A stretch of 64,000 nucleotides of DNA from Alphaproteobacteria bacterium. GTDB taxonomy: Bacteria > Pseudomonadota > Alphaproteobacteria > JAEULC01. Position 1 is the stretch's first letter, and every line of letters starts with the position of its first letter. A model generated the notes under the pieces. That model saw nothing but the letters and a program-made list of their open reading frames with translations, made no database searches and was not told where the DNA came from. The stretch lies in NCBI GenBank assembly GCA_020846275.1, contig JADLEG010000183.1, positions 9,693 through 73,692 of the forward strand, in the 5' to 3' direction. Below, piece after piece: positions 1,164 to 59,262 of the stretch. A program made the position numbers and the translations under genes.

Positions 1164-1181
1164 CGAATCGGGCCGGAGGGA

Positions 1182-5776: not shown

Positions 5777-5887
5777 CGCCTGTCCGCGCGGGCCCTGCCC
5801 GTCCTGGCCGAAGTGGCTGATTCGCGTGGACAAAGTGTCGCCGATCGGCCCGCCAAATTCCAGCGCAGGCGCCAAAGCCGCCTGCCG

Positions 5888-9211: not shown

Positions 9212-9405
9212 GTGGCGGGGCTCCCCTCAACCTGACGACTTAGGTCCAGGGTAGCAATTCCGAGGCCATTGCGCCTTTCCGACACACGGGCGGAACCCCG
9301 GCCACCGGGTGCCCAAATTTAAGGCGCTTTGGAACGGACCTGTGACACAATACCGCCTCGGGCTGATAGGCTGCGGCACAACGTCAAGAAAGAGGGATCC
9401 GATCC

Positions 9406-10330: not shown

Positions 10331-10999
10331 ATGTCGCTTTACAGACTTAGCGGAGGATTCATCGGAGCCATTCTGGGTATTGCATGCCTTGCCGGTACGG
10401 CATCGGCCCTGCCCAGCCAGACGACCTTCACCGCCGCGGGGCTCGGCAGCATCGGGGATTGGACCCTGGTGGGAACACCGGAGACCTTCGGTTCAGGCGG
10501 CGGCAACGGCGCATTCTCGTCGGGCGGCCTGGCCAATTTCGAGTTGCGCCTTGGCGACTATCGCAACATCTTCGGCGTCGCGCTGACCAACAGCACCGGC
10601 CTGGTGCCGATCTTCGACACCTCGTCCGATGCGGCCGGCGCCAGCGAAGCCTTCGCGCCGCCGGCCAATCCGTTCGTCTTCTACTTCCAGACGATCTGCA
10701 GCAGCTGCTCGAGCGATGACGGCATCATCTTCTCGGACGGCGACCGGACGAACGACGGGCTGGCCCAGCTCGACATGGCGATCTACCAGCAGGGCAGCAT
10801 CTTCGCCTTCTTCTTCGACGATGGCGGCCCGGATGGCGGAATCCTCTGCGGGATCGGCATCGGCTGCAACGACGACAACGACTTCAACGACATGGTCGTG
10901 ACGGTCAGCGCCAACAGCGTGCCCGAGCCGATGACGCTCGGTCTCCTGGGCGCCGGCCTGCTGGGCCTCGGCTTCGCCGGGCGCCGCCGCCGCAGCTAG
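10331..10999 (+). CDS. PEP-CTERM sorting-domain secreted protein (exosortase substrate)
   Basis: N-terminal signal peptide (…GIACLAGTASA). Low-complexity Gly/Ser/Asp/Cys-rich body. The C-terminus VPEPMTLGLLGAGLLGLGFAGRRRRS is the canonical PEP motif plus a TM helix plus an Arg cluster. Confidence 0.8.
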   Translation: MSLYRLSGGFIGAILGIACLAGTASALPSQTTFTAAGLGSIGDWTLVGTPETFGSGGGNGAFSSGGLANFELRLGDYRNIFGVALTNSTGLVPIFDTSSDAAGASEAFAPPANPFVFYFQTICSSCSSDDGIIFSDGDRTNDGLAQLDMAIYQQGSIFAFFFDDGGPDGGILCGIGIGCNDDNDFNDMVVTVSANSVPEPMTLGLLGAGLLGLGFAGRRRRS

Positions 11000-44201: not shown

Positions 44202-45542
44202 ATGAACCGGCAGGAATGGCAGGAACGCAATGTCGGCGAGGACGGGCGCTCTTGGCTGGACCGCGACGCCGTTGCGTATCTGCACCAGGCCGGGTCGACG
44301 CCCTGCATCACGTCGATCCAGTCCGCCGACGGAGTGTGGCTGGAAGCCCATGGCGGCAAGCGCTATCTCGATCTCTACGGCAACAGCGTCCACCATGTCG
44401 GCTATCGTCATCCGCGGATGATCGCAGCGCTGACGGCCCAGCTGAACGAGCTGACCTTCGCGCCGCGGCGATTCACGAACGAGCCGGCAGTACGGCTGGC
44501 GGAAATGTTGTTGAAGCGTTGGCCGGGCGGCAGGGGCCAGGTGCTCCTCACAACGGGCGGATCCGATGCGATCGAGTTGGCGATGAAGATCGCCCGCGTC
44601 TCGACCGGCCGGTACAAGACCATCTCGTTCTACGATTCCTATCATGGGAACGGCTTCGGCGCGCTCAGCGTCGGCGGGAGGTACGCCGACCGCTCTCCGC
44701 GGTTGGGGCCGCTGCTCGAAGGCGCCCTGCACGTTCCGCCGTTCTACGCCCGCGATGACGCCTGGGATACGCCGGCCGAAGCGTCGCTGGATGCCATGCG
44801 CTACGTCTTCGCGCGCGAGCGCGACATAGCGGCGGTGATTGCCGAGCCGATCCGTTCGACCCCGCACATCCCGCCGGATTGGTATTGGCCGGAGGTCCGC
44901 AAGCTGTGCGATCAACATGGCGCGCTGCTGATTTTCGACGAGATCCCAACCGGGCTTGGCAAGATGGGCAAGCTGTTCACCAGTGAGCATGTCGGCGCCC
45001 GGCCCGACATGACCGTGCTGGGCAAGGCGCTGGGTGGCGGCGTCGTACCGGTCGCAGCCGTGATCGCGCGAAGCGACCTGAACTGCGCGACCGAGCTGTC
45101 CCTGGGCCACTACACGCACGAAAAGAATCCGTTTTGCGCGCGCGCCGCGCTGACCATGCTGCAGATCGTCGAGGACGAGGGACTCGTCGAGCATGCCGCC
45201 ACGCTCGGCGCGCACGCGTTGACGCGCGTGGCGTCGATGTCCACACGCCAGCCCCTCGTGAAATGCGGCCGCGGTCGCGGATTGCTGTTCGCAATCGAAC
45301 TGCAGTCGGCCGGCGCCGGGAAGCCGGTGAACGAGATCGTGCAATCCGTCTTTTGGCGCGTGCTGGATCGAGGAATAAATCTGTCGGCAAGCGAGGGCCG
45401 CGACCTCTCCATCACGGCACCTCTTGTCATTTCACGGGACCAGCTAGATCACGCCCTTGATCAGATCGAAGGCGCAATAGCGGAGGAATGGGGCGGATTG
45501 AATTCTGCAAGTCGACCTGGTCACCGTGGCGGGACCAGCTAG
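44202..45542 (+). CDS. class-III (omega) aminotransferase, PLP-dependent
   Basis: 446 aa. …TTGGSDAIELAMKIAR…, FDEIPTGLGKMGKLF (PLP-lysine region), VLGKALGGG. The ATG lies 9 nt after the permease stop. The upstream 145 aa of the ORF-track frame was rejected. Confidence 0.85.
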   Translation: MNRQEWQERNVGEDGRSWLDRDAVAYLHQAGSTPCITSIQSADGVWLEAHGGKRYLDLYGNSVHHVGYRHPRMIAALTAQLNELTFAPRRFTNEPAVRLAEMLLKRWPGGRGQVLLTTGGSDAIELAMKIARVSTGRYKTISFYDSYHGNGFGALSVGGRYADRSPRLGPLLEGALHVPPFYARDDAWDTPAEASLDAMRYVFARERDIAAVIAEPIRSTPHIPPDWYWPEVRKLCDQHGALLIFDEIPTGLGKMGKLFTSEHVGARPDMTVLGKALGGGVVPVAAVIARSDLNCATELSLGHYTHEKNPFCARAALTMLQIVEDEGLVEHAATLGAHALTRVASMSTRQPLVKCGRGRGLLFAIELQSAGAGKPVNEIVQSVFWRVLDRGINLSASEGRDLSITAPLVISRDQLDHALDQIEGAIAEEWGGLNSASRPGHRGGTS

Positions 45543-45609
45543 AGCGGGATGGCGGCACGCGGTTGCGATCCGACGGTGGCTCGGTATTGGCGAGGTTCGC
45601 TCGACATCC

Positions 45610-47145
45610 TCACAAGAGATCTTTCTCCGTCAGCGTTTGTTCCATTTTGGCATTCGTCCACGCTCGACCGAACGCCCTGCTTAGGTAGTGTTCGTATTCC
45701 GCGGAAAATGCATTCGCGTCCTTGGAAGGATAGTGCCGCGCCAGTGCCGCGGCGACGTCGGGCAATGTGGATAGGCCGAGATCGATTGCCCATCCCCACC
45801 CTGTCCTGCCAAACATTACATCGGCGACGGACGCTGGCGCTTCACACCGAACGATGTGATCGAGATCAACTCCTTTCGGGATGCTCGCCCCAGGAGTGCC
45901 GGCCTTCACGGTCGCTCTCGAAGGAACGCCCAACCTGTCTGCAACGCAGGCAAGAACGTCCCTGGATGTGATGGCATGATCGGCCAGGCGTCCCCACGAC
46001 ATGCTGAGCCAAAGCGAGCGACCTTTGCGCTGGTCCACGTAGATCCGACGCTTCCACCCGCCGAGCGGATTGCCCGGCTCGAAGGTCGCCGGACGCATAC
46101 CCGCCCATCGAAATAGCACGTCCTTCCGTGTGATGCTGGCACCCGGGATCACAGCGCCAGCTTCGCGCAACAGCCTGTCGATGTCTTCATCGCCCGCCTC
46201 GACCTGATCGCTTGCACCGTCGATCGCCGTCTCGGAGGGGCCTATGATGTGGAAGTCCTTCCACGGCAAGCAGATGAACATATGGCCGATGGTGTTGCGG
46301 CTGACGATCCCGACGTCCCGGAAGGCAGGCGGAAGGCGAACGGCGAAGTGACAGCCCTTGTTTGGTGTGACCGTCGGCCCGGCATCGGCATCGGCAAGCC
46401 GATTGACGCCGTTTGACCAAGGCCCCGCCATATTGACGACGACGCGCGCGATCACCTGCGGACGGCTTTTCCCCGTCAAACTATCGACAAGAGTCAGACG
46501 CCATCCGCCCTCGCACGCCTCAGCGCCCGTCAGCGTCACATAGTTAAGCACGGTGGCGCCGTAGCCGGCAGCTTCGAGCGCATACTCGACGCACACACGT
46601 TCCGGCCAGTCAAACACCAACTCCGAATAAGAGGCAATTCCCACAAGATCGTTTCCGAGATACGGCGCCAGTGGATGAGATATGAGGCTCTGCTTCGAGG
46701 TTCGGCGATAGTTCAGCGGAACCGAGTACCCGCCCATGCCCTTGAGCATGGCGAAGGCGAAATCGAACTGCCAGGGCTTGACGGCGTCGGCCTCGCGCAG
46801 GGGAATGTGAAGGGTGACTGGCTTCAGGCGCCCCGGCAGCTCTTGGGACAGGCGCTCGCGCTCCCGCATCATATTGCGAGCAAGAAGCACATTACTCAGC
46901 TTCTCGCCGAGCGTCCGAGCGTCCTTGGCAATGGCGAGATAGTTGAGACCGCAATGAAACATGCGGCTGGACCGGGACGTACTCTCCGAGCCGAAATCGT
47001 TCCTCTCCACGAGGAGCACGTTGTAGCCGGCAGCAGCGAGCGTCTTGACAACCGCGCTGCCATTGATGCCGCCGCCGATAACCGCGGCATCGAACGATCG
47101 ACCGTCTAGTTCGGCCAAGTTGTCGCGGGTCAGAAAGCTAGCCAC
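45610..47145 (-). CDS. FAD-dependent oxidoreductase, glycerol-3-phosphate dehydrogenase (GlpD)-like
   Basis: FDAAVIGGGINGSAVVKTLAAAGYNVLLVERNDFGSESTSRSSRMFHCGLNYL is a GlpD-type N-terminus. I chose the GTG at 47145, which overlaps the upstream OCD stop. A TTG at 47118 is an alternative. The longer ORF-track start overlaps the OCD gene by 130 nt and was rejected. Confidence 0.7.
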   Translation of the reverse strand: MASFLTRDNLAELDGRSFDAAVIGGGINGSAVVKTLAAAGYNVLLVERNDFGSESTSRSSRMFHCGLNYLAIAKDARTLGEKLSNVLLARNMMRERERLSQELPGRLKPVTLHIPLREADAVKPWQFDFAFAMLKGMGGYSVPLNYRRTSKQSLISHPLAPYLGNDLVGIASYSELVFDWPERVCVEYALEAAGYGATVLNYVTLTGAEACEGGWRLTLVDSLTGKSRPQVIARVVVNMAGPWSNGVNRLADADAGPTVTPNKGCHFAVRLPPAFRDVGIVSRNTIGHMFICLPWKDFHIIGPSETAIDGASDQVEAGDEDIDRLLREAGAVIPGASITRKDVLFRWAGMRPATFEPGNPLGGWKRRIYVDQRKGRSLWLSMSWGRLADHAITSRDVLACVADRLGVPSRATVKAGTPGASIPKGVDLDHIVRCEAPASVADVMFGRTGWGWAIDLGLSTLPDVAAALARHYPSKDANAFSAEYEHYLSRAFGRAWTNAKMEQTLTEKDLL

Positions 47146-48085
47146 GATTGTCACCGGCAGGAGTCGCGACGGCATCGGCCTCTTGCTTGCAGAGTTCGTA
47201 GGCGAGTCTGATGTCGATTGCTCCGAGGCCCGTCGGCAAGAAGTAGCCTCCGCTTCCGCCGCCAAAGCCATTCGCCTCCAGAACGGAGAGCAAGGACGAG
47301 GGGGTGACCTTTTCGAACGCCGCTATATTGCCGTCGCGTGAAAGGGCATCGAATTGCGGCAGGTCGTCGACGACGAACGTACTGTCGGCTGGAAGTCCTT
47401 GTGTATCGAACGACCTGCCCAAATCGACAAGACTGCAGAAGCAGGATTGATCGAGCCACTCGGCCTTAAGCAGCGTGCTCGAGGGACTAGGCGTGCTGGA
47501 AATTACGATGTCGGCATCGTGCACGCACTCCTGTAGAGATCCGTAGGCGTGAGCCTCACAACCCAATGCCTGGCGCGCGAAATCGGCAAATTGCGACGCG
47601 GTTTCCATTGATCGGCTATATGAAGCGACACTGCGGACTTCAAAACGTTGTGCGAAGAACGCGAGGTGAAGGCGGGCCTGTTCACCGCAGGCGACAAAGG
47701 CAATTCGATGGCTGTCTCGGCGAGCCAAGGCCAGTGCGGCGAGAAGGCTGACGCATGCAGTCCTTGTTGCCGTGATCCTTCTCGCATCGACGACTGCAAA
47801 CGGCTTCGCGCTGTCCGTCTTGCTCAGTACGATGACTGAACCGCCCCGGCCGCCGGCCGACGGTCCCGAAGTCGTGCCAAGCCATTTGACCCCCGCAATG
47901 CCGACCTCTTCCAGTATCGCGGGGAAAGCCATGAAACGGACACCGTCCCGGGTCGAGATGGTAGGCCGGGGAGCAACGACGATGTCGCCGCGTGCTATTC
48001 CATGGAGCGTGTTCTCCGCGATCGGAATGACTGTGTCCGGAGTCAGTCGAAAAGCCTGAACGGCATCGTCGGAGATGAACTGCAT
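47138..48085 (-). CDS. ornithine cyclodeaminase/mu-crystallin family protein
   Basis: MQFISDDAVQAF… N-terminus and Rossmann region typical of OCD/ketimine-reductase proteins. I chose the internal ATG at 48085; the ORF track starts at 48130. Confidence 0.75.
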   Translation of the reverse strand: MQFISDDAVQAFRLTPDTVIPIAENTLHGIARGDIVVAPRPTISTRDGVRFMAFPAILEEVGIAGVKWLGTTSGPSAGGRGGSVIVLSKTDSAKPFAVVDARRITATRTACVSLLAALALARRDSHRIAFVACGEQARLHLAFFAQRFEVRSVASYSRSMETASQFADFARQALGCEAHAYGSLQECVHDADIVISSTPSPSSTLLKAEWLDQSCFCSLVDLGRSFDTQGLPADSTFVVDDLPQFDALSRDGNIAAFEKVTPSSLLSVLEANGFGGGSGGYFLPTGLGAIDIRLAYELCKQEADAVATPAGDNRG

Positions 48086-48232
48086 TCTAGCCTTCGTAAT
48101 CGTTCCACCCGCAAGTCTCGCGAGGCGCAACAGTCCGTTGAGTGTTCAATCTTCTACGATCTGCATCGGAAGCGGCGTGGGCATGAGCGGAGTTCTGCAG
48201 GAATGCGGCTCCCAATGAGGCAAGCCGAAGCG

Positions 48233-48952
48233 TCATGCGCGTTTTCGGACTCGGCGCGGCGGGAGGGCCGCTTGCTCCTGCTTGTATCGACGCAAGGCTT
48301 CCAGGGACGACCCCAGGTCGGCGAGAATGGAGTTTCGCAATTCCTCCGGGTCGCGACGTTCCGCTGCCTCTATGATGTCTTCGTGGCGCCGATGATCCCC
48401 GCGCCCCTTGTGCAATAGGGGATACATGTACCGCAAGGTCGGCCCGATTCTCAGCCAAAGAATGCGTGCAAATTCGAGGCGCAATGGCGATTCGGCACGC
48501 TGGTATATCAAGAAGTGGAATACCGAGTTCAGCTGAAGAACCTTCTGGTAGTCGCCAGCGTCGAGGGCAGCAAGAAAGGACTCTTGTGTATCCTTCAAAT
48601 TCTGGACGTCGGTATCGGTGATCTTTTTCGCGGCGGCGATCGCCATGTCGCCTTCGAGCGTGCGCCTGATATCGAATATTTCCGCAATCTCGTCCAAGCC
48701 CCGTTCCGGAACAACGATCGCGCTTTTTTCGGTGACGCCCAGCACTCCGTCTGCCACGAGTCGCAATACGGCTTCGCGCACGGGCGTGACGCTCGCCCCC
48801 ATCTCGACCGCCAACCGACGCACGTTGATACGCTCCTTCGGTGCGTACGAGCCGGCGATAATGGCCCCCACTAGCTGCCGGTGAATTTGCTCGGCGAGCG
48901 TGTCGCCCCGGGACAATGCTTCATAGTTCAAGATGTCCCCCACCCGATTCAT
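48233..48952 (-). CDS. GntR family transcriptional regulator (FadR/FCD subfamily)
   Basis: 239 aa. HTH …ERINVRRLAVEMGASVTPVREAVLRLVADGVL plus an FCD domain. Confidence 0.85.
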   Translation of the reverse strand: MNRVGDILNYEALSRGDTLAEQIHRQLVGAIIAGSYAPKERINVRRLAVEMGASVTPVREAVLRLVADGVLGVTEKSAIVVPERGLDEIAEIFDIRRTLEGDMAIAAAKKITDTDVQNLKDTQESFLAALDAGDYQKVLQLNSVFHFLIYQRAESPLRLEFARILWLRIGPTLRYMYPLLHKGRGDHRRHEDIIEAAERRDPEELRNSILADLGSSLEALRRYKQEQAALPPRRVRKRA

Positions 48953-48962
48953 TTGACTTGCC

Positions 48963-49005
48963 TTGACAGTCTCGATCTTCGGAAATATGATATATCAAAT
49001 TGCGG
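48963..49005 (+). promoter_or_regulatory. sigma-70-like promoter with overlapping operator-like motif (copy 1 of 3)
   Basis: TTGACA-N17-TATGAT followed by ATATCAAATTGCGG; contains the palindrome GATATATC. It lies in the divergent region between the GntR gene and the dapA-family gene. Confidence 0.5.
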
Positions 49006-49045
49006 CGGAATCAACGGCTTTCGTTTATCACGGAGTTCTCCCTTC

Positions 49046-49981
49046 ATGGCAACCAATTGGAATGGCGTATTCCCTGCGATGGTGACCCCTTTCGCGGCGG
49101 ATGGCAGGCTCGATAAGTCGCAGATCGCCGAGCTGGCCGACCTACTCTTGTCCGAAGGGGTTTCCGGCATCGTGATCGGCGGAAGCACCGGCGAATATTA
49201 CTCGATGACCGTACCGGAAAGGATCGAGCTGTTCTCGATCGTCAAATCCCACGTTGCGGGGAAGGCGGTGCTCATTGCCGGCACCTCGTCGATCAACCAT
49301 GCCGAAACGTTGCAGCTGACTTCCGAGGCAAAGCAGATCGGTTATGACGGCTGCATGGTACTCCCTCCCGTTTACTCGCTACCGACGCCTGTGGAGATCG
49401 TCAAGGCGTTTGAAGACGTCGCTGCAATCGGCCTTCCGGTGATGGTGTACAACAACCCGGCGCGCGCCGCCGTCGGCCTCACGCCGGACCTGGTCCAGAA
49501 GCTGGCGCGAATCAAGAACATCGTCGCCTACAAGGAAAGCTCGCGCGATCTCTATCCGATCGCGGAAATCTTCCACACGAACCGCGACCGCCTCTCGCTG
49601 TTTGCGGGCCTCGAGCCCTATGCCGGCGCCTTGCTCTCTCGCGGTGCCGTCGGCATCGTCTCGACAATTTCAAACGTGTGCGCCCGAGAGGTTGTCGCCT
49701 ACTACGAAGCCTACAAGAACAATGATCGGGCGACGCTCGTGAGGGTGCAGCAGATCATCGATGAACTCTATGCCCTGATTCCGCGCGTGCGCATGTCGAA
49801 CTATGCGTTTGTGAAGTGCGCGATGAAGGCCCTCGGGCGGCCGGGCGGCTTTCCTCGTCGTCCGCATTACCTCGCCGATGAAACGCTCCTCCAGGAGATC
49901 GGCAGCGAGATCAAGAAGATCTACGCCCGTGCCGGCATCGCGCCATTGGGATCCGTTTCAGAAATGCGCAAGGCGGTGTGA
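49046..49981 (+). CDS. dihydrodipicolinate synthase/N-acetylneuraminate lyase (DapA) family protein
   Basis: 311 aa. …GIVIGGSTGEYYSMT…, Schiff-base Lys region …VAYKESS…. GGAG Shine-Dalgarno sequence. In-frame upstream ORF-track codons were rejected. Confidence 0.85.
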   Translation: MATNWNGVFPAMVTPFAADGRLDKSQIAELADLLLSEGVSGIVIGGSTGEYYSMTVPERIELFSIVKSHVAGKAVLIAGTSSINHAETLQLTSEAKQIGYDGCMVLPPVYSLPTPVEIVKAFEDVAAIGLPVMVYNNPARAAVGLTPDLVQKLARIKNIVAYKESSRDLYPIAEIFHTNRDRLSLFAGLEPYAGALLSRGAVGIVSTISNVCAREVVAYYEAYKNNDRATLVRVQQIIDELYALIPRVRMSNYAFVKCAMKALGRPGGFPRRPHYLADETLLQEIGSEIKKIYARAGIAPLGSVSEMRKAV

Positions 49982-50035
49982 TGCTATTGCGGCCCAGGTG
50001 AAGCGGCGCGCGGGCTCCAGTCGCCGCTCCTATCG

Positions 50036-51121
50036 TCATCGATCGGGATCGAGCATCGTGGTGGCGTGGCGCGGCCATCCGATCCGGACCTTTGTCCCTG
50101 CCGCCAAGCCGCCGATCTTGTCGCTGGTTAGGCAGGAGACAGTGACGTTGAGTCCATCGCCAACGTCGACCAGGAACTGGGTAATCTGCCCGGACAGGAT
50201 CACTTCAGAGATCGCGCCCACCAGGACGTTATCTTCCTTCTCCTCCGGCTCGAGAAATCGCAGCCGCTCCGGTCGGACCATCCATCCGACCTCTCCGCGA
50301 ACCGGTATGCAAGAGGAAGCAACCTTAATTGGGCCGAATTTGTCGTGGGCGATCACCGGATCGTCGCCTTGTCTATCGGCAACTCCTTGGAAAATATTCG
50401 TCGCGCCGAAGAAATCCGCGGAAAAGACCGAACTGGGGTTGGCATAGATTCGCCTTGGCGCGCCCACGTCCTTGATCTTGCCACCGCCCATCAGGCAGAT
50501 CCGATCCGACATGGTGAGCGCCTCCTCCTGATCGTGCGTCACATAGATCATGGAAAGCCCGAGATCGTCGTGAATGCGTTTGATCTCGAACTGCATCTGC
50601 TGACGAAGCTTGCGATCCAGCGCGCCGAGCGGTTCATCCATGAGAATCAATGGAGGCCGATAGACAAGCGCCCTGGCGATCGCGATGCGCTGCTGCTGCC
50701 CGCCGGAGAGCTGCTTCGGCCTACGGTCTTCCACGCCAGGCAGCTTGATCAGTTCCAGCGCCTCGGCGACCCGCTCCTTGACCTCGACCTTCGGCATCTT
50801 TCGGATCCGGAGCGGAAACGCGATGTTCTCGAACACTGACAAGTGCGGCATCAGCGCAAAGTTCTGAAACACCATGCCGATGCCCCGCACGCGCGCCGGC
50901 AGGTAGGATATGTCGCGACCATCGAGAAACAGGGATCCGGAGGTCGGGAAAAGCGCGCCCGAGATGATGTTTAGCAGCGTCGTCTTGCCGGAACCGCTCG
51001 GGCCCAGCAACGTGACGAACTCTCCCTTGCCAATGTCCAGCGAGACGTCGCTCAGCGCTTCGACGGAACCGTAGCGCTTGGTCACATTGGCAATTCTCAA
51101 AATGGGCGTTTCGCTATTCAT
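50036..51121 (-). CDS. ABC transporter ATP-binding protein (PotA-type)
   Basis: GPSGSGKTT, LSGGQQQRIAIARA, ILMDEPLGALD, and a TOBE C-terminus. ATG at 51121 (MNSETPIL…). Confidence 0.9.
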   Translation of the reverse strand: MNSETPILRIANVTKRYGSVEALSDVSLDIGKGEFVTLLGPSGSGKTTLLNIISGALFPTSGSLFLDGRDISYLPARVRGIGMVFQNFALMPHLSVFENIAFPLRIRKMPKVEVKERVAEALELIKLPGVEDRRPKQLSGGQQQRIAIARALVYRPPLILMDEPLGALDRKLRQQMQFEIKRIHDDLGLSMIYVTHDQEEALTMSDRICLMGGGKIKDVGAPRRIYANPSSVFSADFFGATNIFQGVADRQGDDPVIAHDKFGPIKVASSCIPVRGEVGWMVRPERLRFLEPEEKEDNVLVGAISEVILSGQITQFLVDVGDGLNVTVSCLTSDKIGGLAAGTKVRIGWPRHATTMLDPDR

Positions 51122-51184
51122 GCCGGGCCAACGACTCTCACTTGCTCCAAATCTCACCTCAACCGATCCAACCGCCGTCCCTGC

Positions 51185-51997
51185 CTAATTTTCCCGTTCC
51201 TCCGGCTTCTGAAAAGCCGCGTAGAATAGAATGATCGCGATCGATGTGAGCGCCAGCATCGTCGCGGCCGCCGCGATCTCCGGTGCCACTTCGACCTTGA
51301 GACTGCTGTACATTACGACCGGCAGCGTCGTCGCGCTCGTGCCGGCAATGAACCACGAGATAACGACCTCGTCGAACGAGATGAGGAACGCGAAGAGGAA
51401 AGCAGACGCCAGGGAATACCATATCTGCGGCACGACGACGCGCGTGTAGATGGCCATCGGCGTCGCACCCATCACCGCAGCGGCGGTCTCCACATTCTGG
51501 TCGATCTGTTTGAGGCCGGAGGTCACGACGACGATGACATAGGGAATGGTCAGGAGCGAATGCGCGAGCACCAAACCCGAGGTCGTGCCAATCAGTCCCA
51601 GTTGCGAAAAATAGAAATAGACCCCGAGCGCGATAACGATCGATGGCACCAGGATTGGGCTGAGGAGGATCACGCCCACCAGCTTCTGACCGGGGAATGC
51701 TCCTCGCACCAAGCCAAAGGCCGCAAGCGAGCCGATGAGCGTCGCCAGCATGGCCGTGCCACATCCGACGATCAGGCTCTCGACAAGCGAACCGGTCCAG
51801 ACCGGCGACGAGAAGAACCGCTCGTACAGTTCAAAGGAAAATGTGCGCGGAGGAAACGTCAGCGATGTCGCGCCGCCGAACGAGATCGGTATCGTCAGGA
51901 TGCTGGGAAGCGTTAGGAAAACATAGATGCAACCGATCAGAAGGGCGAAAAGCAACTCGCGCAGATTCCAGCCCGACGGTTCGAGCGGGCGGTTCAT
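51185..51997 (-). CDS. ABC transporter permease (PotC-like)
   Basis: 270 aa. BPD_transp_1. ATG at 51997. Confidence 0.85.
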   Translation of the reverse strand: MNRPLEPSGWNLRELLFALLIGCIYVFLTLPSILTIPISFGGATSLTFPPRTFSFELYERFFSSPVWTGSLVESLIVGCGTAMLATLIGSLAAFGLVRGAFPGQKLVGVILLSPILVPSIVIALGVYFYFSQLGLIGTTSGLVLAHSLLTIPYVIVVVTSGLKQIDQNVETAAAVMGATPMAIYTRVVVPQIWYSLASAFLFAFLISFDEVVISWFIAGTSATTLPVVMYSSLKVEVAPEIAAAATMLALTSIAIILFYAAFQKPEEREN

Positions 51998-52884
51998 GTC
52001 AGCGGCTTCGATTGATCGGAAACTCGCGACAGTCCGAACACCAGCAGCCCGCTTGCCACGAGCAGCACCACCGCGACCGCCGACGACACGGTCCAGTTCA
52101 AGGTTTCGCGCGTGTAAAGGTCGATCAGGTTGGCAAGCATAATGTCCGTCCGGCCGCCCAGCAGGGCGGGGGTCACGAAGAACCCGAAGCCGATGATCAT
52201 GCACATTAGGGCGCCGGCTAGGATAGCAGGTGAGCTGAGCGGCAGCGTCACCCGCAAGAAGATGGTCCAGGGCGTGGCGCCCATGATCTCCGCCGCCTTC
52301 GCGAGTGTGCGGTCTTGCATGAGAAGATTTGTCAGGACGGGAAACACCACGAACGGGAGCAAATGATTCGACATTCCGATGAGGACGCCAATCCCATTGA
52401 ATATCAATGGAATCTCTGGATTCCCGCCCAATATCCAGCCGAGAACGCTGTTGATCAGCCCATTCCTTCCCAAGATGACCGTGAAGGAGTAGCTCTTCAC
52501 CAGGATGCTGGTCCAGAATGGAAATAGGACCAGCACCAATCCGATTGCCCGCTTTCGCGCAGACAGCCGGGAAAGGTAAAGCGCGAGCACATAGCCCAAT
52601 AGGACGCTTACCAGCGTGGCGAGGACCGCAATCTCGATACTCGTCCAGAGCACGCGCGAGAAAAGCGTGCTCGTGAGTAGCCAGCGGTACCCATCAAGCG
52701 AATAGCCGCCATGGCTCTGAAAGCTGAAGAGAACGATGTATCCGATCGGCACGGCGAAGATCGCGCCGAACAGCAAGATGGCGGGAGCGGCGAATTCCAG
52801 TCCTTGCCAGCGGCGAGGCCCCGACCACTCCGCCTTAGGGGGCGATGTGGTACCGAGGTTGCCTACGCTCTGGATCGACGCCAT
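51994..52884 (-). CDS. ABC transporter permease (PotB-like)
   Basis: 296 aa. BPD_transp_1. Its stop overlaps the downstream ATG (ATGA). Confidence 0.85.
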   Translation of the reverse strand: MASIQSVGNLGTTSPPKAEWSGPRRWQGLEFAAPAILLFGAIFAVPIGYIVLFSFQSHGGYSLDGYRWLLTSTLFSRVLWTSIEIAVLATLVSVLLGYVLALYLSRLSARKRAIGLVLVLFPFWTSILVKSYSFTVILGRNGLINSVLGWILGGNPEIPLIFNGIGVLIGMSNHLLPFVVFPVLTNLLMQDRTLAKAAEIMGATPWTIFLRVTLPLSSPAILAGALMCMIIGFGFFVTPALLGGRTDIMLANLIDLYTRETLNWTVSSAVAVVLLVASGLLVFGLSRVSDQSKPLT

Positions 52885-52913
52885 CTTCGCCGTCTAGGCG
52901 GATCATTGGACGC

Positions 52914-53972
52914 TCAGGTCAGCAGGAACTCCTGAAACCGCTGCTGAACGGCGGCGAATTCCACCGCCCACCAATCGTCGTTCTGAACGATATGATGCTT
53001 GCTCGACACGTCCGGCAGCCACTTCTTGCCTTCCGCACTGACCAGATCCATCGCACGCGGATTGCCAGGAAGGTAGCTGATCATTTCGGCGAATGCCGCC
53101 TGTCGATCCGGTCTGAGGCAGAACGCCACGAACCGCATGGCAACGTCTTTCCGCGGCGTGCCCTTCACGACACCGATATACTCGTGGCTGAGGAACGTCT
53201 GGTCCAGGTTGATTGCGAGCGGGGCCGGCGAACCGATGGTCGCCCTGACGCGGCCATTGGGCAGGTAGTCGAAGTCGACCTCGTTGGTGGTCAACAGCGT
53301 CACAAGCTGCGACGTCGAATCGGCCCATTTCGGCACGCTCGGCTTTAGCTTCTCGAGAGACTTGAGCGCCCGATTCACATCCAGCGGATAGAGGCGCGCC
53401 GGATCAACGCCGTCTGCCACGAGCGCGATCTCGAGCACGAAATCGGCACGAGCCCGCATCGAACGCTTTCCGGGGAATTTCTTTACGTCCCAGAACTGGG
53501 CGCAGTCCTTCGGCGCATTCTGCGCGTTATGCTTGCCGGCATTCCAACCAACGCCATAGGGCGTGTGATAGAAAGGGGCATAGTCCTTGCGTTCGCCGAG
53601 GACCAGGTCCTTGTCGGTGATGACAGCGGGATCCAAAGGCTCGAACAGCCCTTCTTTGGATCCTACCGGAAACCATGCGCCCCCTGCGTCGAACACGTCC
53701 CATTCGACGTTGCCCGCCGACACTTGCGCCTTCAAGCGGGCAAAATCCGGCACGCCGGAGAACACCACCTCGACGCCCGTTTCCTTGGTGAAGGGATCGG
53801 TGTAGGCCGCCTTGACCATGTCCTGATAGCTGCCGCCATAGGTCGGGAAGATCAGCCGCTTGTTCTGCGCCCGCGCGACCCTGGAGATGAACGGCATTGC
53901 CACAGCGGACGCTGAAGCCGCCAGAAATGCACGGCGATGCAAAGAGACATGGCCCCTTGTTTCCACGGTCAT
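52914..53972 (-). CDS. ABC transporter substrate-binding protein (family 1, PotD/PotF-like) with Tat signal
   Basis: 352 aa from MTVETRGHVSLHRRAFLAASASAVAMPFISRVARAQ, a twin-arginine signal. The upstream 67 aa of the ORF-track frame was rejected. Confidence 0.8.
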   Translation of the reverse strand: MTVETRGHVSLHRRAFLAASASAVAMPFISRVARAQNKRLIFPTYGGSYQDMVKAAYTDPFTKETGVEVVFSGVPDFARLKAQVSAGNVEWDVFDAGGAWFPVGSKEGLFEPLDPAVITDKDLVLGERKDYAPFYHTPYGVGWNAGKHNAQNAPKDCAQFWDVKKFPGKRSMRARADFVLEIALVADGVDPARLYPLDVNRALKSLEKLKPSVPKWADSTSQLVTLLTTNEVDFDYLPNGRVRATIGSPAPLAINLDQTFLSHEYIGVVKGTPRKDVAMRFVAFCLRPDRQAAFAEMISYLPGNPRAMDLVSAEGKKWLPDVSSKHHIVQNDDWWAVEFAAVQQRFQEFLLT

Positions 53973-54000
53973 CTCCCGTCGAGTTGCGCACGCTTGGGTG

Positions 54001-54045
54001 CTGCCATAATTTGAGATATCATATTGCGAATAACATTTCCGGTCA
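54001..54045 (-). promoter_or_regulatory. sigma-70-like promoter with overlapping operator-like motif (copy 3 of 3, minus orientation)
   Basis: The reverse complement reads TTGACC-N18-TATGAT followed by ATCTCAAATTATGG. It lies about 35 bp upstream of the SBP start at 53972. Confidence 0.45.
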
Positions 54046-54279
54046 AGCGCCGAATCGGTAACCGGGATGTCCGCGGTCGTGTTCGTAAAGACCATGCCCA
54101 AGCCCGTCGGTTGACGGTTGTAGTTTCGTCTGCCACGCGCGCGGGCCGCGCGCCGCGCAGACCAAATGGCCACTCCTCATCCGCAGGCCCGCGCCCAGGG
54201 TCTAATTGCCCGACGGCCTTCGCCTGGACATCGCTTGCTGAAATCTGCAGACCGCCGCCCAGCCGCGACGCCAAGCGGC

Positions 54280-54323
54280 TTGACAGGTCGTCAAACACAG
54301 AAATACGATATATCAAATTACGG
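54280..54323 (+). promoter_or_regulatory. sigma-70-like promoter with overlapping operator-like motif (copy 2 of 3)
   Basis: TTGACA-N18-TACGAT followed by ATATCAAATTACGG. It matches copy 1 at 21 of 23 positions. It lies about 180 bp upstream of the OYE-fusion gene. Confidence 0.5.
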
Positions 54324-54505
54324 TAGTTTCGATGAGCGGCTTCAATGACCGCGCGGCGCGCGCTGCAATCCAATTGTGGGCAAGCTTTGAAATGCTTGGC
54401 AGTCCGCATTTCAATGGTAGCGGTCGCCGCAGTCCGGAATATGACCAAGGCATTTGACGCTTGCGAAGCGCGGGGAAGCCGTCAATCACCCAGAGGGCCG
54501 TGGCG

Positions 54506-56545
54506 ATGACCAGTTACCAAGTGCTCCTGACGCCGTTCAAACTACGCAATCTGACGTTGCGCAATCGCTTCGTAAGCACGGCGCACGCGCCGGCTTATGG
54601 CGTCAACTCGATGCCCGGCGAGCGCTATCGCCTCTATCATGTCGAGAAAGCGAAAGGAGGGATCGGCCTGACCATGATCGGCGGATCGACCGCCGTTTCA
54701 CCTGACGCCGTCGCACCGTTCGGTCAGCTCACGCTGGCGGATGACCGCGCCATATCCGCCATCCGCGAGCTCGTTGAGGCCGTGCACAGCCACGGCGCAG
54801 CATGTTTCTGCCAAATCTCTCACCCAGGCCGGCGTGGCCGGTGGGATTCGGGATCTTGGCTCCCGCCGGTCGGCCCGTCTCATATCCGGGAACCCCAGCA
54901 TCGGGCCTTTCCAAAGGAAATGGAGGACTGGGACTTCGAGCGCATTGTCAACGACTACGAAGCCGCGGCGCGCCGTTGCAGGGCAGCCGGACTAGACGGC
55001 GCCGAATTGCTGTTCGCCGGCGGGCATCTCCTGCTGCAGTTCCTCTCGCCCGCCGTGAACATGCGCACCGATCAATATGGCGGAAGCCTGGAAAATCGCC
55101 TGCGCTATGCATTTGAAGTGATCGCCGCAGCCCGCCGCGGGCTCGGGGATGATCTGGTGCTAGGGGTCCGCCTCACCGCGGACGAGTTCATTGCCGAAGG
55201 ACTCAACCAAGCGGAATGTCTCGAGATCGCCAAGGCGATCGCCGCAACCGGCAATGTCGACTACCTGAGTGTCATGGCCAGTCAAACCTACGATTGGCGC
55301 TCGTCCACCTATTCGATTCCAAGCATGGCGTTTCCGCTTGCCCCGTATCTCTCGATGGCACGAGCCATCAAGGCGGCGGTGCCCGTCCCGGTCCTCCATG
55401 CCGGCCGCATTCTCGATCTCGCCACCGCTTCGCGCGCGATTGAGGAAGGCATGATCGACCTGGTTGCGATGACTCGAGCGCAGATCGCCGATCCTCACAT
55501 GGTCCGCAAATTGGCCGAGCGCCGCCCGAACGACATTCGCCCGTGCGTCGGCGCCAACTACTGCATCAATCGCATCTACGCACATGCGGAAGCGTTGTGC
55601 CTGCAGAATCCGGCGACGGGGCGCGAGGCGACAATGCCACACGTGTTCACGCGCTCCGAAACGCCAAAGAACATCGTGGTGGTCGGAGGCGGCCCCGCGG
55701 GCCTGGAGGCGGCACGCGTCAGCGCCGAACGCGGGCACAAGGTCACCCTCATCGAAGCCGAACCCAAGGTCGGCGGCCAGATCAATGTCGCGACCAAGCT
55801 CGGTTGGCGGGACGCGCTTGCGACCATTCCGCAATGGCTCGAGGACCAGTGCCGCAAGCTCGGCGTCGACATGTGGCTGGGCTACACGGCCGATGTCGCG
55901 ATGGTCGAGCGATTCAATCCCGACATCGTCATCGTCGCAACAGGCGGCTATCCCAACATCGGAGAGATCGATGGGGCGGAGCACGTGTTCAGCACCTGGG
56001 ACATCTTGGGTGGCCGCGTAAAGCCCGGAGAACGTGTGCTGATGTTCGACGATCAGGGCTCCGACTCGGGCATGAGCTGCGCTGATTTCTTGTCTCAGAA
56101 TGCTGGCCATCTGGAAGTGGTGACGCCCGAGCGACATCTTGGCATCGAGACCGGTTCGACAACCTATCCCGTCTACCTGGCGAATCTCTACAAGCGCGGC
56201 GCCGCGATTTCGCCTGATCTGCGGTTGCGCCGCGTAGAAACCAGAGGCAACGTCCTGCTAGCGGTGCTGCGCAATGAATACACGCTGAAGGAGGAAACCC
56301 GCGAGGTCGATCAGGTGGTCAGCGACCACGGGACGCTTCCCAACGCCGATCTCTATTTCGAGCTGAAGCCTCGCTCGATCAATCTTGGCGCGGTCGATTA
56401 TCATGCCCTGGTAGCGGGCAAGCCGCAGACGCACGGCGCAAACCCTGAAGGCAAGTACTTTGTCTACAGAGTTGGCGATTCAGTCGCAGGCCGCAACATC
56501 CATGCCGCGCTGTTCGACAGTCTCAGGCTGTGCAAGGACTTCTAA
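54506..56545 (+). CDS. NADH:flavin oxidoreductase (Old Yellow Enzyme) fused to FAD/NAD(P)-binding domain; N-methylproline demethylase (StcD)/2,4-dienoyl-CoA reductase-like
   Basis: 679 aa. OYE TIM-barrel N-terminus (…FVSTAHAPAY…, …GGHLLLQFLSP…), Cys-rich linker (…CVGANYCINR…), and a C-terminal VVVGGGPAGLEAA Rossmann domain. AGAGGG Shine-Dalgarno sequence. ATG at 54506. Confidence 0.8.
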   Translation: MTSYQVLLTPFKLRNLTLRNRFVSTAHAPAYGVNSMPGERYRLYHVEKAKGGIGLTMIGGSTAVSPDAVAPFGQLTLADDRAISAIRELVEAVHSHGAACFCQISHPGRRGRWDSGSWLPPVGPSHIREPQHRAFPKEMEDWDFERIVNDYEAAARRCRAAGLDGAELLFAGGHLLLQFLSPAVNMRTDQYGGSLENRLRYAFEVIAAARRGLGDDLVLGVRLTADEFIAEGLNQAECLEIAKAIAATGNVDYLSVMASQTYDWRSSTYSIPSMAFPLAPYLSMARAIKAAVPVPVLHAGRILDLATASRAIEEGMIDLVAMTRAQIADPHMVRKLAERRPNDIRPCVGANYCINRIYAHAEALCLQNPATGREATMPHVFTRSETPKNIVVVGGGPAGLEAARVSAERGHKVTLIEAEPKVGGQINVATKLGWRDALATIPQWLEDQCRKLGVDMWLGYTADVAMVERFNPDIVIVATGGYPNIGEIDGAEHVFSTWDILGGRVKPGERVLMFDDQGSDSGMSCADFLSQNAGHLEVVTPERHLGIETGSTTYPVYLANLYKRGAAISPDLRLRRVETRGNVLLAVLRNEYTLKEETREVDQVVSDHGTLPNADLYFELKPRSINLGAVDYHALVAGKPQTHGANPEGKYFVYRVGDSVAGRNIHAALFDSLRLCKDF

Positions 56546-56655
56546 GCTGCAGGGCGCATTGCTCGGACACCGATCGAAGCGCCGCACGAACGCTAGCAGA
56601 GCAGGGACCGGTTGGATTCCGCCATGCCTTAACTTGCGTGCCGGGCGCGATGCCA

Positions 56656-58569
56656 CTACGAGTTCTCCGCGGCCGACAGCCTCGCCAACGTCGTGATGCG
56701 AGCGGCAGACGCAGAGGGTGCGGCATACTCGATCGTCCCAATGATCGCTGCCGTGCTACCATTTTCGTGCAGATCGGCGACGCACGCTCCCGCTTCGGCT
56801 TGGCGAACACCGGCAAGGAGACCGCCTGCGGTCTGGGGATCGAACAGGAGCGCCAGGGTGGCTGGGTCCGCTTCGCCGTCGATCAAGCCGCGGAGCGAAA
56901 GATTCTCGGGCAGCAGGGTCGATGCGATGCCCTGGCCGACCAGGGAAAGGGCTTCGGGCAAGACGGGAATGGCGGATAGGTCGAGCCGGGCATCGCAGCC
57001 GCTTGCCGCCAGCATCTCGCCGAGATGCCCCGCCAGGCCGAACCCCGACACATCGGTCATCGCGGTCGCCCCGTGGGCGATCAGGATCTCCGCCGCCCGG
57101 CGGTTCGACCGTCGCATCTCCGTCAGGGCCGCCTCAATCGCCCGCGCTGACGTTCGGCCACGCATGGCGCCCGCAAACAAAATCCCGGTGCCGAGGAGCT
57201 TGGTCAGGATCAGCGCGTCGCCCGGCTTGAGGCCGCCCTTGCGAAGGGCGGAACCGGGTGCCAGCTCGCCCGTGACCGAGAAGCCCAGCGCCAGTTCGGG
57301 GCCTTCGCTGGAGTGACCGCCGACCAGCGCGACGCCCTCGCGGTCCAGGCAGGCGCGGGCGCCGGCGAGCACCTGGAACAGCGCCTCCTCCACCTTCGCC
57401 GCCGGCCCCGGTGGCACCACGCCGATCGCCAAGGCATAGCGTGGCAAGCCGCCCATGGCGTAGACGTCGCCCAGCGCATGATTGGCGGCGCAGCCGCCAC
57501 AACGCATTTCCGGCGGCGGAGAGGCGGTGCCCGCGGCCGGCCGCTGCTTCGCCATGCGCGCTGTCAGCCGCCCGGTGTCCTGGTACATCCGCATCCAGCG
57601 CCGGTCGATCCAGTCCTTGAGGGTCCAAACCCAGGCGCCCTCGGCCTTGAACCAGCCGCGCGACGCAACCGCACGGCGCTCGCCCGTGGAGATCAGGGCC
57701 AGGTGACGCTGCTGCGGCGTCCAGGGGCGCGGGGGGTTGCCGCGGGCACGCCGCCGCAGATTGGCCGCCAATGGCGGTCCCGCCCGTACGGCGAAAACGC
57801 CCGCCTTCGGGCGCGGCGTTTCCACCAGGGCCGCGCAATCGCCGGCGGCGAACACGTCCGCATCGCCGAGACTCTGCAGGGTCGGCCCGGCCGCGAGGAA
57901 CCCCTGCGGGTCAAGCACCAGGCCGGTGTCGCGAAACCATGCCGGCGCCGCCGCGTGCGTGGTCACCAGCACCGCATCGGCCGGCAGGCTCGGGCCGTCC
58001 GCAAGGTCGATCAGGCCGGCCCGCAGCGCCCGCACCTTGCAGCCTTCATGCAGCGCCACGGCGCGGCTCTGCAGGATGCGGCGGAACGCGTCGCGGACCT
58101 TCGGGTCATGCGAGGCAAGGATCTCGCCGTCCGTGACCAGGGTGAAGGCGAACGCCGCGCGGTCCTGTCCCGCCGCGTCAGCATCCGCGAGCAGGCGCGA
58201 GCGCACGGATAGCAGCAGCTCGACTCCGCCCGCGCCGCCGCCCACGACTGCGATCCGCCGCGGCCCCGCAAGGTCCCGGCACCGGGACCGCAGCGTCTCG
58301 AACTTCGCCAGGAACGCGCCGATCGGCTTGACCGCGATTGCGCACTGGGCAGCGCCAGCGATCTGTTCCAGGGCCGGTTCGATGCCCACGTCGATCGACA
58401 ACAGGTCATAGGCGATCGGCGGTCGCCCTTTCAGCAGCACGCGCTTTTCAGCACGGTCCAGCCCGACTGCCTCGGCGTGGATCAATCGCGCGCCGGCGAC
58501 GGCGGTCAGGCGCAGGAGGTCGAGGCGTTTGCCCGCGGCGACGGGTTCACCGTCTACGCCAACGCGCAA
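56656..58569 (-). CDS. NADH-dehydrogenase-like (pyr_redox) domain fused to SelD-like (selenide, water dikinase/PurM-fold) domain; apparently degenerate
   Basis: The C-terminal ~300 aa matches SelD (VYAMGG, VGGHSSEGPE, LTKLLGTGIL, AMTDVSGFGLAGHLGEM, FDPQTAGGLL). It lacks about 60 aa between the Cys motif and the FAMGG-equivalent. The N-terminal half is NDH-2-like with the NAD Rossmann IAVVGGGAGG and GDCA, but has no first FAD GxGxxG. An in-frame stop lies immediately upstream of the TTG start. Confidence 0.65.
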   Translation of the reverse strand: MRVGVDGEPVAAGKRLDLLRLTAVAGARLIHAEAVGLDRAEKRVLLKGRPPIAYDLLSIDVGIEPALEQIAGAAQCAIAVKPIGAFLAKFETLRSRCRDLAGPRRIAVVGGGAGGVELLLSVRSRLLADADAAGQDRAAFAFTLVTDGEILASHDPKVRDAFRRILQSRAVALHEGCKVRALRAGLIDLADGPSLPADAVLVTTHAAAPAWFRDTGLVLDPQGFLAAGPTLQSLGDADVFAAGDCAALVETPRPKAGVFAVRAGPPLAANLRRRARGNPPRPWTPQQRHLALISTGERRAVASRGWFKAEGAWVWTLKDWIDRRWMRMYQDTGRLTARMAKQRPAAGTASPPPEMRCGGCAANHALGDVYAMGGLPRYALAIGVVPPGPAAKVEEALFQVLAGARACLDREGVALVGGHSSEGPELALGFSVTGELAPGSALRKGGLKPGDALILTKLLGTGILFAGAMRGRTSARAIEAALTEMRRSNRRAAEILIAHGATAMTDVSGFGLAGHLGEMLAASGCDARLDLSAIPVLPEALSLVGQGIASTLLPENLSLRGLIDGEADPATLALLFDPQTAGGLLAGVRQAEAGACVADLHENGSTAAIIGTIEYAAPSASAARITTLARLSAAENS

Positions 58570-58844: not shown

Positions 58845-58963
58845 GCCGGCGCGTAGCAATCGACCGATTGCAAGCTCAGCGCCCCAGGGGGCGTATCTCT
58901 TGTAGGTAGGATTGCGAGTAGGAAGGCTCTCTATATGCCAAAATATTGATTTGGCATGATAAT

Positions 58964-59055
<92 letters not shown>

Positions 59056-59262
59056 GCACCTCTCCGCGGGGCTCCGCCGGCCCGCCCCGATTGCAGGGGC
59101 CGGCCCGGGGCTGGCGAGCGGCGGAACCTAGCCAAGACCGCGCCCGCTCGCAAGCGCGATTGCCCTTTCGCCCTGGATTCTATAGACAACCGGCGCTGCC
59201 GCGGCCTTGGCGAGAGGCCCGCGGGGCCATTCCGGCCCCGTCCCGGCGCATGGACGCGAACC

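Follow-up and report, generated by a model that had tools for sequence, protein, structure and literature searches.

The DNA analysed here, a stretch of 64,000 nt from contig JADLEG010000183.1 of an uncultured alphaproteobacterium (hereafter the window), contains a block of conspicuously low guanine-plus-cytosine (GC) content at positions 45,543 to 56,655, which raises the question of what this block encodes and how it came to lie there. An earlier note on this DNA had described it as an enzyme repertoire for the catabolism of hydroxyproline, N-methylproline or opines and had considered it compatible with horizontal acquisition. We consider it probable that the region at ~45.5–56.6 kb is a horizontally acquired, self-contained catabolic module, whose nine genes in four transcription units are under the control of one GntR/FCD repressor. 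Its substrate most likely belongs to the N-methylated and/or hydroxylated cyclic imino acids (derivatives of proline or pipecolate), with an opine-like secondary amine as the second candidate. The specific substrate is a lead rather than a finding, because the block lacks components of each of the canonical pathways for hydroxyproline, proline betaine and opines, and the repertoire named in the earlier note was thus too specific.

Composition and edges of the block

The GC content of the block is 0.602 (45543–56655) compared to 0.687 across the remaining window, a drop of ~8.5 points. In 69 other 11-kb segments of the window the mean was 0.686 with a standard deviation of 0.009 and a minimum of 0.671, and the block lies ~9 standard deviations lower. 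A sliding-window profile, which had been suggested as a check in the earlier note, confirmed a significant compositional shift: segments of 1 kb form a sustained trough of 57.4–63.3% GC at ~45–57 kb, with values of 0.65–0.74 elsewhere. A maximum-likelihood fit of three segments placed the change points at 45,320 and 56,780, each ± ~300 nt, with a gain in log-likelihood of 107 over no change. The limits first proposed for the block (45,550–56,550) are at most 250 nt away from these change points and can be maintained, whereas the accompanying contrast of 55–60% to about 70% GC was slightly overstated. The GC content at third codon positions (GC3) is 0.65–0.77 in all nine block genes, on both strands; for comparison, it is 0.87–0.95 in core genes, 0.79–0.86 in the ABC transporter and aminotransferase genes of the left flank and 0.84 in a SelD-fusion gene on the right. 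The symmetrised dinucleotide distance delta* (×1000) to the remaining window amounts to 55 for the block and to 12–34 for segments not touching it. A native region of low GC content caused by weak expression was considered and rejected: nine genes on both strands are shifted, the dinucleotide signature is altered and the genes are absent from relatives.

Both edges lie between the stop codons of converging genes. The left boundary spacer of 67 nt (45543–45609) separates a class-III aminotransferase gene (44202–45542, plus strand) from the block's flavoprotein gene, and the right boundary spacer of 110 nt (56546–56655) separates the block's gene for a fusion of Old Yellow Enzyme (OYE) and FAD domains from the remnant of the SelD-fusion gene.

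Absence from relatives and the tRNA-Ser locus

As noted earlier, the block ends ~2.4 kb short of a tRNA-Ser(cga) gene (58974–59065, minus strand); the distance from the stop codon of the OYE-FAD gene is 2.43 kb. The 3' end of this tRNA gene is the exact breakpoint in comparison to all three related lineages, which were distinguished by the identity of their HisZ proteins: L051 (92%), L052–L055 (85%, four independent assemblies) and L056–L059 (84%). The order tRNA-Ser(cga)-hisZ-purA is kept in all three, and similarity to the window starts exactly at 58974. Upstream of the breakpoint the relatives carry genes for GST, TPR and glycosyltransferase proteins (one lineage) or HipAB together with transposase fragments or an MFS transporter (another). 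None of the block genes was found in the contigs of L051–L059 that flank tRNA-Ser, and the presence/absence comparison that the earlier note had also proposed thus revealed no syntenic presence in close relatives. Contigs recovered with a 100%-identical HisZ were only 1.5 kb long. A contig scan seeded with the SelD-fusion neighbour yielded only distant homologues (≤68% identity) without synteny and is silent on presence or absence.

Horizontal acquisition of the 11-kb block is well supported, since its composition is foreign and none of the three closest relatives found carries the module next to tRNA-Ser. The rarity of its genes agrees with this claim of the earlier note: apart from identical copies no ortholog in the protein collection exceeds 61–66% identity (see below).

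The variable region is larger than the block. In L052–L055 the equivalent of window positions 2413–9963, which ends with fae, is followed by ~55 nt and then by the tRNA gene. As fae nearly abuts the tRNA there, the window's positions 9,964–58,973 are missing from these contigs. This defines a strain-variable segment of ~49 kb from the fae stop codon to the 3' end of tRNA-Ser (9964–58973), in which the block is nested and in whose place the 92% and 84% relatives have other DNA. The compositionally atypical part amounts to 11 of 49 kb, and the block is the sole piece of foreign composition. The 11-kb foreign block of the earlier note therefore stands, but as only a part of a longer segment that reaches the tRNA. 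The picture is that of a long-lived rearrangement hot spot at tRNA-Ser, of which the block is the clearly foreign and probably the most recent piece.

Homologous modules in metagenomes

The whole module is present on two metagenomic contigs, L048 and L002. In L048 the genes for a protein of the dihydrodipicolinate synthase (DHDPS) family, a binding protein, two permeases and an ATPase form one row, divergent from the genes for the regulator, a protein of the ornithine cyclodeaminase (OCD) family and the flavoprotein; the encoded proteins are 55–76% identical to those of the block. The proteins of L002 (ENA ERZ27252546) are 61–86% identical, and an OYE-FAD gene is included (71%). Five further genes are inserted between the DHDPS and binding-protein genes of L002 (2897–9077). 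They code for a D-amino-acid transaminase (above its NCBIfam cut-off), a trio of DAO, Fer2_4 and Pyr_redox_2 proteins, and an aldehyde dehydrogenase; such a trio is of the heterotrimeric opine or D-hydroxyproline dehydrogenase type (PMC4575208). An IS66 transposase fragment follows the flavoprotein gene (12641–13057). Module-bearing contigs have a GC content of 56–65% (L002: 56%), near the 60% of the block. In comparison to these modules, the window has its transporter operon turned around with respect to the DHDPS gene, and its OYE-FAD gene lies on the other side, which indicates that the cassette has been shuffled between hosts.

A palindromic box at four promoter-like sites

The regulator gene of the block (48233–48952, minus strand) is the first gene of the operon regulator-OCD-flavoprotein and codes for a GntR-family protein of 239 residues with an FCD ligand domain (Pfam GntR and FCD); it is 80% identical to the regulator of the L002 module and 67% to that of L048. 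A repeat search detected a 24-nt element in three copies with an 18-nt palindromic core, AATAYGATATATCAAATT. This box is present at 48984, 54008 and 54302 and nowhere else within the 64 kb (three copies compared to 0.01 expected by chance). The first copy (AATATGATATATCAAATT, 48984–49001) is the centre of a divergent promoter pair (48963–49014), with TTGACA-17-TATGAT on the plus strand for the DHDPS gene and TTGATT-16-TATCAT on the minus strand for the regulator gene. The second copy (AATATGATATCTCAAATT, 54008–54025) belongs to the promoter of the transporter operon (TTGACC-17-TATGAT; 54008–54046, minus strand), and the third (AATACGATATATCAAATT, 54302–54319) to that of the OYE-FAD gene (TTGACA-18-TACGAT; 54280–54319, plus strand). 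An independent promoter scan found its best sigma-70-like sites to coincide with the box elements, so that the box overlaps the −10 element of each of the four promoters. Overlap with the −10 element is the classical position of a repressor.

The box recurs with no or one mismatch upstream of the DHDPS and binding-protein genes in the homologous modules L002 and L048. L048 is ~65–77% identical to the window at the DNA level, and L002 was compared at the protein level only. Such conservation is phylogenetic footprinting in favour of a function of the box. As all four promoters overlap the same palindrome, which is conserved in two homologous modules, we infer from position and conservation that the GntR/FCD protein of the block binds the box and controls all four units as one regulon.

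The enzymes of the module

The nine gene families named in the earlier note were all borne out by Pfam and NCBIfam. Genuine glpD, potABCD or dapA genes were considered and rejected, as every one is below the curated cut-offs.

The core of the module is a conserved gene pair. The first gene (47138–48085, minus strand) codes for an NAD(P) enzyme of 315 residues and represents a rare subfamily of the OCD/mu-crystallin family (Pfam OCD_Mu_crystall, E 4e-32); the second (45610–47175, minus strand) codes for a GlpD-fold FAD flavoprotein of 521 residues (Pfam DAO, E 1e-37). The start of the flavoprotein gene overlaps the end of the OCD-like gene by 38 nt and the two are translationally coupled; both start codons match independent gene calls in a protein collection (P0001, 315 residues; P0291, 521 residues). 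The two genes are adjacent in every context recovered, with the flavoprotein start a few nucleotides before or just after the end of the OCD gene.

The earlier note had suggested a comparison of the OCD-like protein with ornithine cyclodeaminase (Ocd) and the pyrroline reductase LhpI, and it fits neither: it scores 44.2 bits with the LhpI model NF045512 (PyrPipCarbRedLhpI; cut-off 400), and 44.5 and 44.4 bits with the cyclodeaminase models NF005762 (cut-off 350) and NF005011 (337). The structures nearest to its predicted model (mean predicted local distance difference test, pLDDT, 90) are archaeal alanine dehydrogenase, pyrroline-2-carboxylate (Pyr2C) reductase, SbnB, iminosuccinate reductase and mu-crystallin, and the true cyclodeaminases rank lower. 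Because its nearest folds are dehydrogenases and imine reductases, the model points to imine/amine redox chemistry rather than to cyclodeamination. The label 'GlpD-like' for the flavoprotein was right with respect to the fold but not to the family. Its top NCBIfam match is GlpD, at 125 bits compared to cut-offs of 352–360, whereas its AlphaFold model (pLDDT 87) matches GlpD/GlpO over the full length, including the C-terminal helical domain, with template modelling (TM) scores of 0.75–0.79 at ~20% identity. Amine oxidases cover only the core of the model (TM ~0.5). The motif HGGLRY with a phosphate-binding arginine, which we take to be typical for GlpD, reads HCGLNY in the block protein.

Both proteins are extremely rare. 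About 19 homologues of the OCD-like protein with at least 39% identity were found among 5.8 billion protein clusters, and 14 cluster representatives at E ≤ 1e-30 among 1.84 billion of which every protein was scored; an alignment scan of 241 million metagenome records of the Joint Genome Institute (JGI) yielded five loci, on short contigs. The distribution of the flavoprotein in the protein collection is equally narrow. Beyond identical copies, the next-best homologues among the 5.8 billion clusters are 61% (OCD-like protein) and 66% (flavoprotein) identical. Named carriers of the pair are limited to Rhizobium sp. Khangiran2 and Pseudorhizobium endolithicum (41–48% identity).

The OYE-FAD gene (54506–56545, plus strand) codes for a two-domain FMN (OYE) and FAD/NAD flavoenzyme of 679 residues of the HpbA/StcD/DgcA-like N-demethylase group (Pfam Oxidored_FMN and Pyr_redox_2). 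Its identity over the full length is 48% to a Paracoccus aminovorans protein annotated as 'N-methyl-L-proline N-demethylase HpbA', and it is 53% to homologues from Azospirillum, which lie in betaine-demethylation clusters among genes for a Rieske oxygenase, an Fe-S protein, an electron-transfer flavoprotein (ETF) and ProU. The motif CVGAxYC-x11-C is common to all four aligned proteins. The role of HpbA is genetically established in P. denitrificans (PMC3950512). The resemblance to StcD that the earlier note had seen is thus sustained, and the block enzyme fits the HpbA/StcD-like N-demethylases, although its substrate is not readable from 48% identity. On plasmid pSR-1 of Skermanella rosea (L063, 243–9563) a homologue of the OYE/FAD type (43%) occurs together with a GlpD-fold homologue (35%) and an amino-acid ABC system. 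This distant cluster again joins the two kinds of flavoenzymes, which may therefore be functionally linked beyond the module of the block.

The DHDPS-family gene (49046–49981, plus strand) codes for a predicted class-I (Schiff-base) lyase of the DHDPS/NanA family with 311 residues (Pfam DHDPS, E 3e-60) that is 78% identical to its L002 homologue. It scores 188.8 bits with the dapA model (cut-off 206) and is about equidistant from DapA and NanA; the Schiff-base lysine (VAYKESS), the tyrosine (YNNPAR) and a GSTGE motif are kept. The closest plasmid homologue (46–47%) comes from the nfe region of Sinorhizobium meliloti GR4 plasmid pRmeGR4b (L070) and is encoded there by a DHDPS-family gene without a name; a dapB-like gene, a GntR regulator, insertion sequence (IS) elements and the nfe1/nfe2/OCD-family nodulation-efficiency genes are its neighbours.

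The importer

The transporter operon comprises, all on the minus strand, the genes for a periplasmic binding protein with a twin-arginine leader (SLHRRAFL; 52914–53972; Pfam SBP_bac_8), a PotB-like permease (51994–52884; 79% identical to L002), a PotC-like permease (51185–51997; 86%) and a PotA-like ATPase with a TOBE domain (50036–51121) that is below the PotA cut-offs, as assigned by Pfam and NCBIfam. The earlier note had regarded this system as an importer of the PotABCD type, which is not supported: the NCBIfam scores are 39.7 bits for PotD (cut-off 582) and 356 bits for PotA (cut-off 482). Among PDB structures the binding protein matches 4I1D (2e-48), a sensor for gamma-aminobutyric acid (GABA) based on Pf622 (2e-46), the 'agropine permease' AgtB (2e-46), Atu4243 (2e-45) and MotA (1e-32), and PotD/PotF only at 1e-10 to 1e-6. 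Its identity to the GABA and opine binders is ~40–45%, as estimated by eye from the alignments, and it resembles the GABA binders Atu4243 and Pf622 as closely as AgtB and MotA. By sequence it belongs to the group of GABA-, agropine- and mannopine-binding proteins and not to the PotD type. Since it is far closer to these binders than to PotD/PotF, a zwitterionic, amino-acid-like molecule is more likely to be the cargo than a polyamine. A blastn search of the block against plasmids found the ABC transporter genes only, with the best match on a plasmid of Agrobacterium vitis, where DHDPS-family and hydantoinase genes lie alongside.

Proposed pathway and alternatives

From these assignments we propose the following sequence of events. 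The Tat-exported binding protein, the two permeases and the ATPase would import a small amine bearing a carboxylate group, as their family membership suggests. The regulator would sit on the 18-nt palindrome over every −10 element and would be released by the substrate or a product; the sites and their conservation are observed, and occupancy is predicted. The HpbA-like FMN/FAD enzyme could then remove an N-methyl or N-alkyl group, in line with its 48% identity to the annotated HpbA. The coupled pair, for which fold and coupling are established, would presumably act on the imino or amino acid thus formed, either by oxidising it or by interconverting it with its cyclic imine. The putative Schiff-base lyase of the DHDPS family would open, deaminate or cleave (by aldol cleavage) the intermediate, and later steps, e.g. 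by an aldehyde dehydrogenase, would be supplied by the host.

A tentative extension of this proposal, which we regard as possible, is that the pair, the importer of the GABA/opine type, the DHDPS-like lyase and the FCD regulator constitute an undescribed catabolic pathway for a nitrogenous compound that the known routes for hydroxyproline, proline betaine and opines do not cover. In this reading the two enzymes of the pair would together form an amine/imine oxidoreductase of two components, and the whole would spread among Alphaproteobacteria as a small mobile cassette. Candidate substrates include a pipecolate that is hydroxylated or N-methylated and a novel amine of the opine type. A literature search on stcD/stachydrine and on OCD combined with N-methylproline demethylase found no paper with such a combination of genes.

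It is unlikely, in our view, that the block is a canonical island for hydroxyproline or N-methylproline of the stachydrine type, with demethylation by an HpbA/StcD-like, oxidation by an LhpB-type, deamination by an LhpC-type and reduction by an LhpI-type enzyme. Watanabe's Lhp pathway uses enzymes of the DHDPS, DAO and OCD families, and these superfamilies, with a DAO-type flavoprotein and an OCD/mu-crystallin reductase, recur in the Lhp/Hyp pathways (LhpA–I of Azospirillum and Pseudomonas, hyp of Sinorhizobium) as in the block. The expanded module L002 adds the DAO, Fer2_4 and Pyr_redox_2 trio and an aldehyde dehydrogenase, as in LhpBEF/LhpD, but has a D-amino-acid transaminase at the position expected for the epimerase. 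In the block, by Pfam, none of the nine proteins has the domain of a 4-hydroxyproline 2-epimerase (proline racemase family), and an alpha-ketoglutaric semialdehyde dehydrogenase (Aldedh) is absent, being present only in L002. The OCD-like protein fails the LhpI model as well as the Ocd models (44 and 44.5 bits with cut-offs of 400 and 350), and the flavoprotein has a GlpD architecture of 520 residues, not that of the D-hydroxyproline oxidases with ~375–415 residues. With the Hpb pathway of Paracoccus denitrificans and Rhodobacter sphaeroides (Kumar et al. 2014, PMC3950512) and the stc genes of Sinorhizobium the block has in common the FMN/FAD enzyme with 48% identity to annotated HpbA and its three-cysteine motif, and the organisation as a dedicated, regulated module for import and demethylation. 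However, Pfam detected in the block neither a Rieske-type betaine demethylase (HpbB/C, Stc2–4) nor an enolase-superfamily HpbD racemase nor a ProU-type transporter, and DgcB/ETF partners are likewise missing, all of which lie near the 53%-identical Azospirillum homologue. Instead the block uses a GntR/FCD regulator and adds the OCD-like/GlpD-fold pair and the DHDPS-family enzyme.

Utilisation of opines (N-carboxyalkyl or N-alkyl amino acids), in which the binding protein captures a secondary amine, the OCD-like enzyme (in the manner of SbnB) or the OYE-FAD enzyme (in the manner of amine dehydrogenases) cleaves its C-N bond and the products enter central metabolism, appears quite unlikely. E values of 1e-46 to 1e-32 connect the binding protein with AgtB (agropine/agropinic acid) and with two mannopine binders, one of them MotA, and with the Agrobacterium importers of opines and GABA (MotA, AgtB/AgaA, Atu4243) the block has both the binding-protein group and PotBC-like permeases in common; the Agrobacterium vitis plasmid with the best match to the transporter genes points in the same direction. 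The structures nearest to the OCD-like protein include SbnB, an enzyme that cleaves an opine-like amine by oxidation, and L002 combines the heterotrimeric flavoenzyme of the opine or D-hydroxyproline dehydrogenase type with a D-amino-acid transaminase (PMC4575208). But opine and GABA binders match the binding protein equally well. An opine oxidase or dehydrogenase (OoxAB/NoxAB or the heterotrimeric flavoenzyme) is absent from the block by Pfam, the trio being found only in L002, and the window holds no OoxAB/NoxAB-type oxidase and no canonical Ocd. Unlike the Agrobacterium systems the block is chromosomal and has no mannopine cyclase and no Ti/Ri context, and its host is an uncultured alphaproteobacterium of the free-living type; nothing in the window hints at an association with plants.

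That the block is a chimera of assembly or binning is highly improbable: the source is a metagenome-assembled genome (MAG; an identical HisZ is annotated 'MAG: Alphaproteobacteria bacterium'), but host-type DNA lies on both sides in one contig, so that a chimera would need two independent misjoins, both of which must hit intergenic spacers of converging genes, and a 3.8-kb piece (L045), which was assembled independently from the data of another, unrelated run, matches 45677–49471 with 99.05% identity, although it spans no junction.

Several observations weigh against our preferred reading of a horizontally acquired, self-contained and singly regulated catabolic module. None of the nine proteins reaches the curated NCBIfam cut-off of any named enzyme family, so that no reaction is established. 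The OCD-like/GlpD-fold pair occurs without DHDPS and OYE genes beside acyl-CoA ligases in L003 and L046 and beside sarcosine oxidase in L004, and L048, where acyl-CoA ligases also adjoin the pair, is counted with them; what the pair catalyses may therefore have no connection with N-demethylation or with imino acids. The nearest ligands of the binding protein, GABA and agropine, are not imino acids, and the proposed link between regulator and operator is drawn from position and conservation. With regard to acquisition, the relatives are draft MAGs or metagenome contigs, and the evidence against a module at another place in their genomes is only indirect. No donor genome was identified. The 49-kb segment resembles tRNA-associated genomic islands in that its start coincides exactly with the tRNA 3' end, differs or is absent in relatives and has accessory catabolic cargo. 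In contrast to such islands, conjugation or phage genes were not found here, and only 11 of 49 kb are atypical. A domain search of the sizeable open reading frames (ORFs) at 9.9–59 kb detected no integrase or transposase, in agreement with the earlier note, and the window has no tRNA-derived repeat of more than 14 nt, which leaves the far end of the segment unmarked. Repeats resembling att sites that bracket the block are short matches only and may well be due to chance; the best (21 of 24 nt, at 45820 and 56773) lies in coding sequence.

In the contexts L003 (6222–7298) and L046 (7744–8811), a protein of ~355 residues accompanies the pair and the acyl-CoA ligase; it has no match in Pfam, NCBIfam or the PDB.

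The block is otherwise an ordinary horizontal acquisition of a nutrient-utilisation operon and of a familiar kind, a mobile, repressor-controlled catabolic cassette. It is a small cassette with its own repressor and conserved operator in a tRNA-linked variable region of an uncultured alphaproteobacterium of the soil or water type, and repressor and operator make the regulon directly testable. No member of the core enzyme pair has been characterised, and public data contain extremely few copies of the pair. With its substrate named, the OCD/mu-crystallin and GlpD-fold families would gain a new pair of reactions, and it would become apparent which plant- or microbe-derived amine this lineage uses.

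Other features of the variable segment

Besides the block, the 49-kb segment contains enoyl-CoA hydratases, succinyl-CoA-ligase-like subunits, a sulfatase, an enolase-superfamily protein, the class-III aminotransferase and similar genes, and, with that of the block, five ABC systems; GC3 is mostly host-like. The enolase-superfamily gene (38556–39692, host-like GC3 of 0.87), which is the only MR_MLE gene, has an 82%-identical copy in L051 (17842–18213), downstream of purA. Because this copy lies elsewhere in L051, some of the 49 kb may be native DNA that has changed its position and was not imported.

Exact-sequence look-ups of the OYE-FAD protein (queried from an upstream TTG start) and of PurA gave no match. 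In an Rfam scan of 44–59.5 kb the tRNA alone exceeded its gathering score, and three other matches were below theirs.

Between the block and the tRNA gene lies the degraded oxidoreductase/SelD fusion (56656–58569, minus strand). In comparison to three MAG homologues it has lost the N-terminal ~55 residues with the GGGHxH FAD motif and has an in-frame gap of ~65 residues in the N-terminal catalytic part of SelD. The adjoining non-coding DNA (58879–58973) ends at the 3' end of tRNA-Ser with an AT-rich perfect hairpin, TATGCCAAA-ATATTGA-TTTGGCATG (58934–58958), in surroundings of 70% GC. This hairpin may serve as a terminator or mark where an old integrated element ended.

At the other end, just inside the left limit of the segment and in a local GC dip, an ORF at 10331–10999 (plus strand) without a Pfam hit has a C-terminal signal resembling PEP-CTERM (VPEP...GLLGLGFAGRRRRS). 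The stable left flank (72–9963) consists of genes for a circularly permuted ATP-grasp protein, an Alpha-E protein, a transglutaminase and a DUF2126 protein, followed by fae, and is syntenic with the 85% relatives.

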